In this document: positions 31,633 through 32,589 of the stretch, one piece after another
Layout: each line of letters starts with the position of its first letter
How positions within the stretch are numbered: position 1 is the stretch's first letter
Source of the DNA: a bacterium
GTDB lineage: Bacteria > UBA10199 > JADFYH01
DNA: 64,000 bases
Assembly: GCA_046346885.1 (NCBI GenBank)
Contig: JAXMHI010000002.1
Span: 216,768 to 280,767, forward strand
Reading direction: 5' to 3'
Notes under the pieces: generated by a model
Databases searched by the model: none
Told to the model about the DNA's origin: nothing
What the model saw: the letters and a program-made list of their open reading frames with translations, nothing else
Position numbers and translations under genes: made by a program

Positions 31633-32589
31633 ATGCTTCTTAAATCCATCGAAAACTTAGAGCCCCGATTTCGTGTGTTGGTCTATGTTGCTTCCTTGGG
31701 TGACGAAGAAAACACCTTCCAACTTTTCCGTTTCGTTCCCGCCCAATACGAGCAACCTCTCGTCGAAGCCACCCGCGAGTTGATGTCGATTCCGAAAAAG
31801 GAAAGAAATCAGGTCGTCCTCAAAGAATTGAAAAAGATGATCCAGTCGCAAAAGATGACGCTCTTAAGCGAAATCGATCCCGGTTGGTTCATCGAGTCTC
31901 TCAAGGCGGAAAGACCCCAAACGATCGGCTTGATCTTACGCAATCTTCCGACTGAAAAGGTAAAGCATATCGTTTCCCATTTACCTCCGGAGATCCGTAA
32001 AAAACTTCCAAAGATGAACGAGGCCCTCAAGGTTTCCGACGAGGTGATGGAAATCGTGCGGAGCCGTTTCGAGTCGCAGTTTCCCGCCTTAAATGCGCCG
32101 GAGAGAACCGAAGAAATCGGTCTTCATCATTTTTACTTCATCCGTATCGAAGCGCTGCTCGCACTTTTCAAGGATTTGGGATTGGAGCAACTCGCCCGCG
32201 CTTTCAAGGGGATCCATAAGGTGGCTTTGAAAGCCTTGCTCAATCGCTTGCCCATCAAGGATGCCAAGGAATTTCAGCAAAAAGTGAAAGCGATGGATAA
32301 AGTTTCCAACCGGGAGCTCAAAGAAGCTCAAATGCTCCTTCTCAACCTTCCTTTGGAGACCATGGATCCGGAAGATCTTTTCTTAGAGGTGGGGATGGCC
32401 TTTTTTTCCAAGGCGGTGAGTCGAGAAGATTCCGATCTCATCCGTGCCCTCGAGTATAAGCTCCCGCCGAAGTACGGATATTTACTGAAACGCTACGTGG
32501 ATGAAAGCTTAGGGGCGAATAAGCCGGGAATGATCGAATGGGTTAAAAAGCAGGTTTTGGATAAATTTCAGAATTTCCCCACCGATTAA
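31633..32589 (+). CDS. FliG-like protein (flagellar rotor/switch family) at the position SctK occupies in injectisome operons
   Basis: ESLKAERPQTIGLILRNLPTEKVKHIVSHLPPEIRKKL resembles the FliG middle-domain EHPQTIALILSYL...LP.E motif. LARAFKGIHKVALKALLNRLPIKDAKEFQQKVKAM...VSNRELKEAQ resembles the FliG C-domain. Confidence 0.6.
   Translation: MLLKSIENLEPRFRVLVYVASLGDEENTFQLFRFVPAQYEQPLVEATRELMSIPKKERNQVVLKELKKMIQSQKMTLLSEIDPGWFIESLKAERPQTIGLILRNLPTEKVKHIVSHLPPEIRKKLPKMNEALKVSDEVMEIVRSRFESQFPALNAPERTEEIGLHHFYFIRIEALLALFKDLGLEQLARAFKGIHKVALKALLNRLPIKDAKEFQQKVKAMDKVSNRELKEAQMLLLNLPLETMDPEDLFLEVGMAFFSKAVSREDSDLIRALEYKLPPKYGYLLKRYVDESLGANKPGMIEWVKKQVLDKFQNFPTD

Follow-up and report, generated by a model that had tools for sequence, protein, structure and literature searches.

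The subject of this analysis is a 64,000-nt stretch of contig JAXMHI010000002.1 (GenBank assembly GCA_046346885.1, positions 216,768 to 280,767 of the forward strand), referred to below as the window, in whose numbering its coordinates are given, and, within it, a gene for a 318-amino acid (aa) protein which lies in a cluster of type III secretion system (T3SS) genes. This protein is a true homolog of the flagellar protein FliG, in sequence and in fold, and the system to which its gene belongs is non-flagellar and injectisome-type (lipoprotein SctJ, ATPase SctN and an SctV/R/S/T export gate), with flagellar features kept. The explanation that we favor, at a probability of about 0.7, is that the protein is a divergent member of the FliG family and links, as an adaptor, the cytoplasmic ring of this non-flagellar T3SS (NF-T3SS) to its inner-membrane ring, a task that falls to SctK in injectisomes and to FliG in flagella.

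The open reading frame (ORF) occupies positions 31633-32589 of the + strand, starts with ATG and contains FliG-type motifs in the middle and C-terminal parts of its product, among them AERPQTIGLILRNLP (residues 92-106), which had been pointed out in an earlier, sequence-only reading of the window. That observation was borne out by Pfam: in the window protein, FliG_M (PF14841) was matched at residues 87-153 (31.8 bits, cut-off 25) and FliG_C (PF01706) at residues 174-238 (30.3 bits, cut-off 23.3), and FliG_N (PF14842) gave no Pfam match there. When 133 members of the protein family were scanned singly, FliG_N was matched in 31 of them (best E=1.1e-6), and the family profile gave, among PDB chain sequences, a weak match (E=0.021) to FliG_N of 5tdy_B, from a FliF-FliG complex. 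The search of PDB chain sequences retrieved FliG only, the E-value improving from 1.3e-4 for the single sequence to 4e-9 for a profile of 20 sequences and 5e-19 for one of 133.

The predicted structure points in the same direction. AlphaFold models built with 20 and 133 sequences reached a predicted local distance difference test score (pLDDT) of 80.6 and 95.0, respectively, the latter with a predicted TM-score (pTM) of 0.85, and the top 12 and top 14 Foldseek matches of these two models in the PDB were all FliG. The M domain superposes on FliG_M of Helicobacter pylori (4fq0_C, from a FliG-FliM complex) with a TM-score of 0.78 and a root-mean-square deviation of 2.1 A (Foldseek). Segment-to-segment profile comparison divided the protein into four parts:

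31633-31857, + strand: segment N, residues 1-75
31858-32097, + strand: segment M, residues 76-155
32098-32352, + strand: segment C, residues 156-240
32353-32586, + strand: segment X, residues 241-318

These are four related helical units, of which C and X are homologous (hhalign 96.6%, E=6e-10), the N-C and M-C comparisons having given 73-77%. Segment X (~78 residues) is without a counterpart in FliG.

In the flagellum, the EHPQ motif of FliG_M and the GGxG motif of FliM together make the FliG_M-FliM_M contact (structures 4FQ0 and 4QRM). The corresponding features of the window are as follows:

31909..31920, + strand: ERPQ motif of the FliG-like protein (residues 93-96), which lines up with EHPQ in the FliG proteins of T. 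maritima and H. pylori
36335..37309, + strand: SctQ, FliM-like, 324 aa (Pfam FliM, PF02154, 55.5 bits, cut-off 27; SctQ model TIGR02551, 19 bits)
36680-36697, + strand: LGGGGD motif of SctQ (residues 116-121), found in its sequence

Of 150 family members, 146 keep residue E93 and 134 keep P95, position 96 being mostly R or Q; W85, E93, P95, G183 and G254 are near-invariant across the family. On the other side of the putative contact, LGGxG(D/E) is present in all eight SctQ sequences aligned (the window and seven orthologs). The charges R281, D288, D289 and R297 of E. coli FliG are those of the torque helix that contact MotA, and they are not kept here, since at the positions concerned (209, 216, 217 and 225) the residue varies among the 150 members or has the opposite charge. 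Most plausibly, the protein keeps the adaptor function of FliG and has lost its rotor function.

The family is neither small nor confined to the window. When 1.84 billion cluster representatives (50% identity clusters) were searched exhaustively with a profile, the number of proteins obtained was 139 at E<1e-30 and 291 at E<1e-10; almost all of these are 300-370 aa long and matched over the full length. Conservation likewise extends along the whole protein, with 50-67% identity in 18 relatives and down to ~20% across 133. Among those 133 members, Pfam matched FliG_C in 122 (best E=5e-16), FliG_M in 118, MgtE_N in 99, FliG_N in the 31 mentioned above and YscK in four. All named sources are uncultivated genomes, labelled "bacterium", "Deltaproteobacteria bacterium", "Myxococcota bacterium", "uncultured Pseudomonadota" or "Pyrinomonadaceae bacterium", and a word-indexed protein search with the 133-sequence profile returned a nearly identical set and no cultured organism.

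Gene neighborhoods were compared in the window and 15 relatives, of which L001-L009 are close and the others distant (~20-30% identity). The FliG-like gene stands directly before sctL-sctN in all 16 loci, and in four distant ones (L012, L045, L046 and L047) it directly follows sctJ, which is the canonical sctJ-sctK-sctL arrangement of Yersinia, Photobacterium and Shigella. Besides the window, 12 of the 15 relatives have sctJ as a neighbor; at L003 it follows from the tblastn map only, and L010 and L011 show none. The slot between sctJ and sctL is indeed that of sctK in known operons (YscK of Yersinia pCD, OrgA/MxiK of the Shigella virulence plasmid), as the sequence-only reading had stated, and here this slot, between sctJ/sctI and sctL, is occupied by the FliG-like gene. 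Two corrections are needed. The cluster is not Ysc-type, as neither a secretin nor sctU nor Ysc-specific genes are present in the window. In the window, moreover, sctJ and the FliG-like gene do not adjoin but are separated by four genes (two unknown ORFs, the sigma-28 gene and the sctI-like gene).

The question of how such an adaptor might be held at the membrane concerns two further proteins of the cluster:

28044..28988, + strand: SctJ lipoprotein, 314 aa, with lipobox GVGC, one C-terminal transmembrane helix and a cytoplasmic tail (TIGR02544 SctJ, 133 bits)
28830..28985, + strand: SctJ tail, 52 aa (KMTKLRRELKV...PQIPAAGQTLPKS), the residues after the hydrophobic helix, a candidate docking peptide
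24156..26411, + strand: 751-aa membrane protein, SctD-like candidate, the first cluster gene (Pfam: FHA 70.6, Yop-YscD_cpl 63.3 and PEGA 96.2 bits)

SctJ scored 133 bits with the SctJ model as against 43.6 bits with the FliF one (Pfam YscJ_FliF, 86 bits), and its lipobox cysteine is kept in 10 orthologs. The 52-residue tail noticed earlier is present, and SctJ tails are indeed shorter in the Ysc and Mxi families. Measured in one uniform way, by hydropathy, the tail length is 41-49 aa for the window and the nine relatives closest to it, 20-41 aa for the four distant systems bearing the FliG-like protein, and 5-12 aa for 28 systems bearing YscK/MxiK (26 Ysc-family metagenome or plasmid loci, YscJ and MxiJ). 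In the loci sampled, a long SctJ tail thus goes together with the FliG-like gene. Only three stretches of the tail are semi-conserved, i.e., a juxtamembrane LR(K/R)xLK, an (M/L)LxGP-like motif and a C-terminal PQIxxxGQxxPK, and the distant tails differ in sequence, being Pro-rich in L012 and basic amphipathic in L045 and L046.

In the SctJ proteins of L045 (6868-7698) and L046 (7079-7915), the transmembrane helix is directly followed by the basic amphipathic RLRxVxxRxxRLQxEIxKAR. This stretch is more helix-like than the Gly/Pro-rich tail of the window protein and would be a better candidate for a FliG_N-binding peptide.

We envisage the following architecture. The M domain would bind the FliM-like SctQ through E-x-P-(Q/R) and GGxG, and this SctQ, together with a separate FliN-like protein, would form a cytoplasmic ring of the flagellar type. 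The FliG_N-like N-terminal segment would anchor the assembly to the membrane ring, the anchor being probably the cytoplasmic tail of SctJ (the FliF homolog), possibly aided by the FHA domain of the 751-aa protein; we lean slightly towards the tail over the FHA domain. Binding to the tail would be the counterpart of the docking of FliG on FliF, a coupling that the sequence-only reading had suggested and that is at present a candidate one. The FliG-like protein would generate no torque, since the stator charges are not kept, ARM_C is missing, a fourth C-terminal repeat is added, and no Mot, rod or hook genes lie alongside.

The alternative that survives best, which we regard as possible although rather unlikely, is that the protein is the equivalent of SctK in function and evolution and docks on the FHA domain of the 751-aa protein, the SctJ tail being an unrelated disordered appendage. 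It is consistent with the position of the gene and with the finding that SctK binds the FHA domain of SctD in injectisomes (10.1101/2020.09.22.308627). The FHA membrane protein, in turn, is encoded by the conserved first gene of the cluster (it is found at the matching position in eight relatives), and in L047 an FHA protein also adjoins sctV-sctJ-fliG-like; its FHA domain is a docking site of the SctD type as plausible as the SctJ tail. However, FHA genes are missing from the surrounding 8-10 kb in L012, L045 and L046. The 751-aa protein consists of FHA, an acidic linker, a transmembrane helix (residues 220-242), PEGA domains and TPR, so that PEGA and TPR stand in place of the ring-building motifs of SctD. 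Its FHA domain moreover keeps the canonical phosphothreonine-binding residues (GR...SRxH...NGT), unlike that of PrgH, which is without them (PMC9907115), and this suggests a signalling role.

The comparison with SctK itself speaks partly for and partly against this alternative. In the window protein, YscK reached 14.8 bits in Pfam (cut-off 22, E=0.021) and other SctK families gave no match; PscK (6UIE), although present in the PDB library, was never matched by sequence with two family profiles, nor was it in the top 50 Foldseek matches of either model; MxiK showed no similarity (hhalign P=0.51). The weak YscK similarity is centered on the C-terminal part of the protein. The Pfam YscK model aligns query 215-282 to YscK 97-171, the same region being matched in four of the 133 members. 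Over the full length, hhalign gave 1.5% (YscK alone), 12.5% (11 sequences), 6.5% (nine more diverse sequences) and 7.4% (32 sequences). Against the 32-sequence YscK/PscK/VscK profile, residues 163-283 of the family aligned to 63-176 (P=0.005, none of 80 column shuffles reaching the score), and segment X (residues 247-283), one of several segments tried, matched YscK 140-176 over 37 columns (59.5%, E=8.9e-5, none of 300 shuffles reaching the score). In the model this stretch is a helix-loop-helix (H246-259, H264-276), and so is its counterpart in PscK, formed by alpha7 (139-152) and alpha8 (157-164) (10.1101/2020.09.22.308627). The similarity of X and YscK may be taken as a lead towards homology of SctK and FliG, short of proof.

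If that lead were followed further, the family could be an extant FliG-SctK intermediate. SctK would then have arisen from such a FliG by losing N and M and keeping a C-terminal repeat, of which the X-YscK match would be the trace; docking of the FliF-tail-to-FliG_N kind would still take place here on the long SctJ tail, and in later injectisomes it would have been replaced by SctD-FHA-SctK docking, the tail being reduced to 5-12 residues. We hold this scenario to be doubtful.

The remaining alternatives concern the kind of system, i.e., the genes around the FliG-like one:

18827..20948, + strand: SctV (FHIPEP) export gate, with one frameshift, next to argJ and ~3 kb upstream of the cluster (Pfam FHIPEP, 612 bits)
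26898..27479, + strand: SctF-like 193-aa Gly-rich protein, whose C-terminus resembles needle subunits (BLASTP with MxiH)
27569..28009, + strand: small TPR protein, 146 aa, chaperone-like (Pfam TPR families), kept in 9 of 9 relatives
30109..31008, + strand: sigma factor of the FliA/WhiG type, sigma-28 (TIGR02479, 139 bits, under the cut-off of 189.6)
31028..31531, + strand: SctI-like (inner rod) protein, 167 aa, weakly matched only (TIGR02497, 19.2 bits, cut-off 23.45; T3SS_basalb_I, E=0.046)
32704..33384, + strand: SctL/FliH stator protein (Pfam FliH, 74.8 bits)
33475..34851, + strand: SctN/FliI ATPase (FliI_clade2, 642 bits, cut-off 629.8; SctN TIGR02546, 627 bits, cut-off 604.75)
34915..35424, + strand: SctO/FliJ stalk protein (Pfam YscO-like, 69 bits; FliJ, 32 bits)
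35428..36303, + strand: SctP/FliK-like length control protein (Pfam Flg_hook, 25.9 bits, under the cut-off of 29.8), at a conserved position
37306..40025, + strand: FliN-like, FliO-like, SctR, SctS and SctT genes (tblastn with proteins of L006, which were assigned by NCBIfam)

The gene order of the window is kept in the nine close loci, as far as their contigs extend. It starts with the FHA/PEGA/TPR membrane protein, a 97-aa protein, the Gly-rich protein, the TPR protein, SctJ and two unknown ORFs, continues with sigma-28, SctI-like, FliG-like, SctL, SctN, SctO, SctP and SctQ, and passes beyond SctQ to FliN-like, FliO-like, SctR, SctS and SctT (all five related loci examined that far). The sigma-28 factor is 60-86% identical in the relatives, the position of the SctI-like gene is conserved, and the TPR chaperone-like genes adjoin large unknown ORFs.

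An ordinary flagellar FliG in a divergent flagellar export/basal-body operon would account for a part of this picture. The order G-H-I-J-K-M-N-O-P-Q-R is that of the flagellar operons fliFGHIJK and fliMNOPQR, and the cluster follows it; it contains FliM-, FliN- and FliO-like genes together with one for sigma-28, and the ATPase passes the FliI_clade2 cut-off. In the plasmid collection, the best matches of the ATPase were FliI (60.4%) and then YscN (56.8%), which, since both the FliI_clade2 and SctN cut-offs are exceeded, suggests an intermediate position between flagella and injectisomes. Nevertheless, the flagellar explanation is largely refuted, and we consider it very improbable. The ring protein is the 314-aa SctJ lipoprotein and not FliF; among the ORFs of the 64 kb scanned with Pfam there was no rod (FlgB/C), hook (FlgE), FliE, flagellin or MotAB match; SctI-like, SctF-like and TPR chaperone-like genes are present. 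Furthermore, the FliG equivalog score is low (35 vs 226.7), the torque-helix charges are not kept, and SctV outscores FlhA (TIGR01399, 610.6 vs 528.9 bits), with SctR and SctT likewise scoring above FliP and FliR.

According to the last alternative, the protein has no role in secretion and is either a generic helical repeat (MgtE_N/ARM-like) or a relic in decay. This alternative can point to the near-cut-off score of MgtE_N (PF03448, 23.7 bits, cut-off 25.9, in the window protein), its matches in 99 of 133 members and the frameshifted export-gate genes of the window, and appears the least credible of all, because FliG_M and FliG_C score higher and pass their cut-offs as MgtE_N does not (the profile check that the sequence-only reading had proposed against an MgtE-N family without FliG_C), the CBS and transmembrane domains of MgtE are missing, conservation is full-length with fixed synteny, and the relatives have intact export-gate genes in a situation where housekeeping genes of the window are frameshifted too.

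Several results nevertheless weigh against the adaptor proposal and have to be set beside the evidence for it. The full-length FliG equivalog model TIGR00207 gave 35.1 bits, far under its cut-off of 226.7, which makes the protein a divergent FliG homolog and not an ordinary FliG. Global TM-scores to FliG are low (0.2-0.3), the model being compact (pTM 0.85). In the best alignments, ~42 FliG residues (helix_MC and ARM_C) are unmatched between M and C: HMMER mapped query 76-150 to 1lkv 7-82 and query 153-239 to 1lkv 125-211, and the model has a 16-residue non-helical linker between the two domains. The ring stacking of ARM_M on ARM_C, as in FliG, therefore cannot be assumed. As for the anchor, the SctJ tail of the window has 23% Gly+Pro and is of low complexity and weakly conserved, and no tail resembles the helical C-terminus of FliF. 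Finally, no secretin was found among the window ORFs scanned with Pfam, and there is no sctU/flhB, as the NPTH motif occurs in no frame of the 64 kb; both may lie elsewhere in the genome. The export-gate and FliN/FliO-like genes (37306-40100) are broken by ~7 frameshifts in the window (tblastn pieces). The relatives have the FliN-like, FliO-like, sctR, sctS and sctT genes intact, and in the window SecA, ArgJ and SctV (14837-17400, 17489-18763 and 18827-20948) are frameshifted as well, which points to assembly or sequencing indels rather than pseudogenisation. A decaying system, considered because of the frameshifted sctRST, was rejected on the same grounds.

The other genes of the cluster add details on what the system may secrete and how it may be regulated. 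The 193-aa protein, whose middle part is long and Gly-rich, had no Pfam match and no similarity to YscF; BLASTP aligned its SNTIKAKDDAIANTIRNFR with SNTVKVIKDVDAAIIQNFR of MxiH over 19 residues (E=5e-4), C-terminal in both proteins, MxiH ending at the matched R and the window protein having one further residue, S. At the homologous position of L045, a weak T3SS_needle_F match was found. The protein is possibly an SctF-like subunit with an N-terminal extension. The 97-aa protein encoded upstream of it (26517-26810, + strand), which is without a family match, is 68-81% identical to its homologs in seven close relatives and 53% identical to that of L009; few other non-enzymatic genes of the cluster are conserved as well as this one.

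The transcription signals recognized in the cluster are:

31551..31587, + strand: strong hairpin of the intrinsic-terminator kind with a 16-bp stem and a T run, between the sctI-like and FliG-like genes
29031..29057, + strand: sigma-28-type promoter motif AACTTTG-N12-ACCGATAA, upstream of a 182-aa ORF (29035-29583)
40140..40166, + strand: second sigma-28-type promoter motif, upstream of a ~340-aa ORF (40576-41421 as listed)

The hairpin, found also upstream of the FliG-like gene in L002, L004 and L006, indicates that this gene opens the next transcription unit, which is fliG-H-I-J-K-M-N-like. The motif AACT-N15-18-CCGATAA occurs twice in the window (0.22 expected), both times inside the cluster. 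Its first copy is kept at its position in seven of the nine loci L001-L009 (not in L005 and L006), and the second is kept upstream of a homologous gene in L002, L004, L005, L006 and L007. Because the cluster encodes a sigma factor of the FliA/WhiG type, regulation in the style of flagellar class 3 may be retained, and the 182-aa and ~340-aa proteins downstream of the motifs are possibly secreted.

Genes of signal transduction are also located in the window, i.e., a PEGA-domain Ser/Thr kinase, a PP2C phosphatase and two FHA-sigma-54 activators:

45611-48127 (- strand), 12741-13502, 44087-45493 (- strand) and 54281-55924: kinase/phosphatase/activator set near the system

With a canonical FHA domain and a kinase and phosphatase nearby, the 751-aa protein may instead be regulatory, which hints at phospho-dependent control of the secretion system. 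At the far end of the window (58845-63985, - strand), the G+C content falls from ~53% to 33-38% over a cluster of the polysaccharide/O-antigen type with three glycosyltransferases (group 1 or family 2), a Wzy-like polymerase and a UDP-galactopyranose mutase.

Set beside flagellar FliG (3USW, 1LKV, 3HJL and 8UMD), the window protein shares homologous M and C domains, E-x-P-(Q/R), a FliM-like partner with GGxG, a fold match to FliG only, and a gene placed directly before fliH/sctL, fliI/sctN and fliJ/sctO. It differs in the low equivalog score, the missing helix_MC/ARM_C, the extra segment X, the stator-contacting charges that are not kept and the compact predicted fold, and also in its setting, with SctJ rather than FliF as a neighbor and no Mot, rod or hook genes in the window. 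With MgtE_N it shares the helical repeat superfamily and a near-cut-off score, here in a T3SS context and without CBS or transmembrane MgtE domains. Residues 71-128 also gave a weak match (E=0.0087) to the C-terminus of NCBIfam NF004606, presumably the chlamydial FliF family, and this fits the presence of a FliG_M-like region there.

Two chlamydial cases are close by their description: a FliF-FliG_M fusion, the CT719 family (Bergeron 2016, PMC4768692), and an SctK candidate, A0A0U5EPG3, encoded between sctJ and sctL and reported in a 2025 preprint (SPfast) to resemble the FliG and SctK families structurally (10.1101/2025.03.14.643159). Common to them and the window protein are a FliG-derived module, an NF-T3SS and a proposed contact with SctQ, in a non-flagellated organism on the chlamydial side. 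Unlike the fusion, the protein described here is free-standing and full-length (N, M, C and X) and is encoded in the main T3SS operon, and its carriers are not chlamydiae but uncultivated Myxococcota-like or "Deltaproteobacteria" bacteria. As for SctK (YscK/PscK 6UIE, OrgA/MxiK), the gene position, the presumed link of the SctQ ring to the membrane ring and the weak similarity of X are shared. The differences are the length (318 aa vs ~175-210 aa) and the lack of any significant sequence, profile or fold match. PscK, the only SctK with a crystal structure, was described as having a novel fold without resemblance to FliG (10.1101/2020.09.22.308627).

The cluster otherwise fits the "Myxo" NF-T3SS, which are stated to lack FliG and SctF and for which a basal, flagellum-proximal position was inferred (Abby & Rocha 2012, PMC3459982). 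With these and the needle-less T3SS* of Myxococcus xanthus (PMC3459982, PMC10433427), it shares the deltaproteobacterial/Myxococcota background, the absence of a secretin from the locus, an FHA-type SctD, the proteins SctJ, I, L, N, Q, R, S, T and V, and TPR/LcrH-like chaperones; it departs from them in the FliG homolog and the SctF-like C-terminus.

In reviews, the flagellar counterpart of SctK is given as "FliG (?)" (PMC4045390), and in the literature searched (subscription papers lay outside the search) we found no published case of a free-standing FliG homolog that takes the place of sctK in a non-flagellar cluster. The presence of one here bears on the relationship of SctK and FliG, as the sequence-only reading had anticipated. 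According to the standard evolutionary account, the earliest non-flagellar systems lack FliG (PMC3459982). This picture is altered by at least 139 clusters of recognizable FliG homologs at sctK loci, accompanied by FliM-, FliN- and FliO-like and sigma-28 genes: a FliG-type adaptor, and probably a flagellar-type C-ring, persisted after the motility parts were lost. The family makes the origin of SctK testable, and it offers proteins with which one can address how the junction of ring and platform changed and whether docking took place ancestrally on the tail of SctJ or on the FHA domain of SctD. Since the carriers look related to predatory Myxococcota with a prey-lysing T3SS*, this architecture may also matter for bacterial predation.

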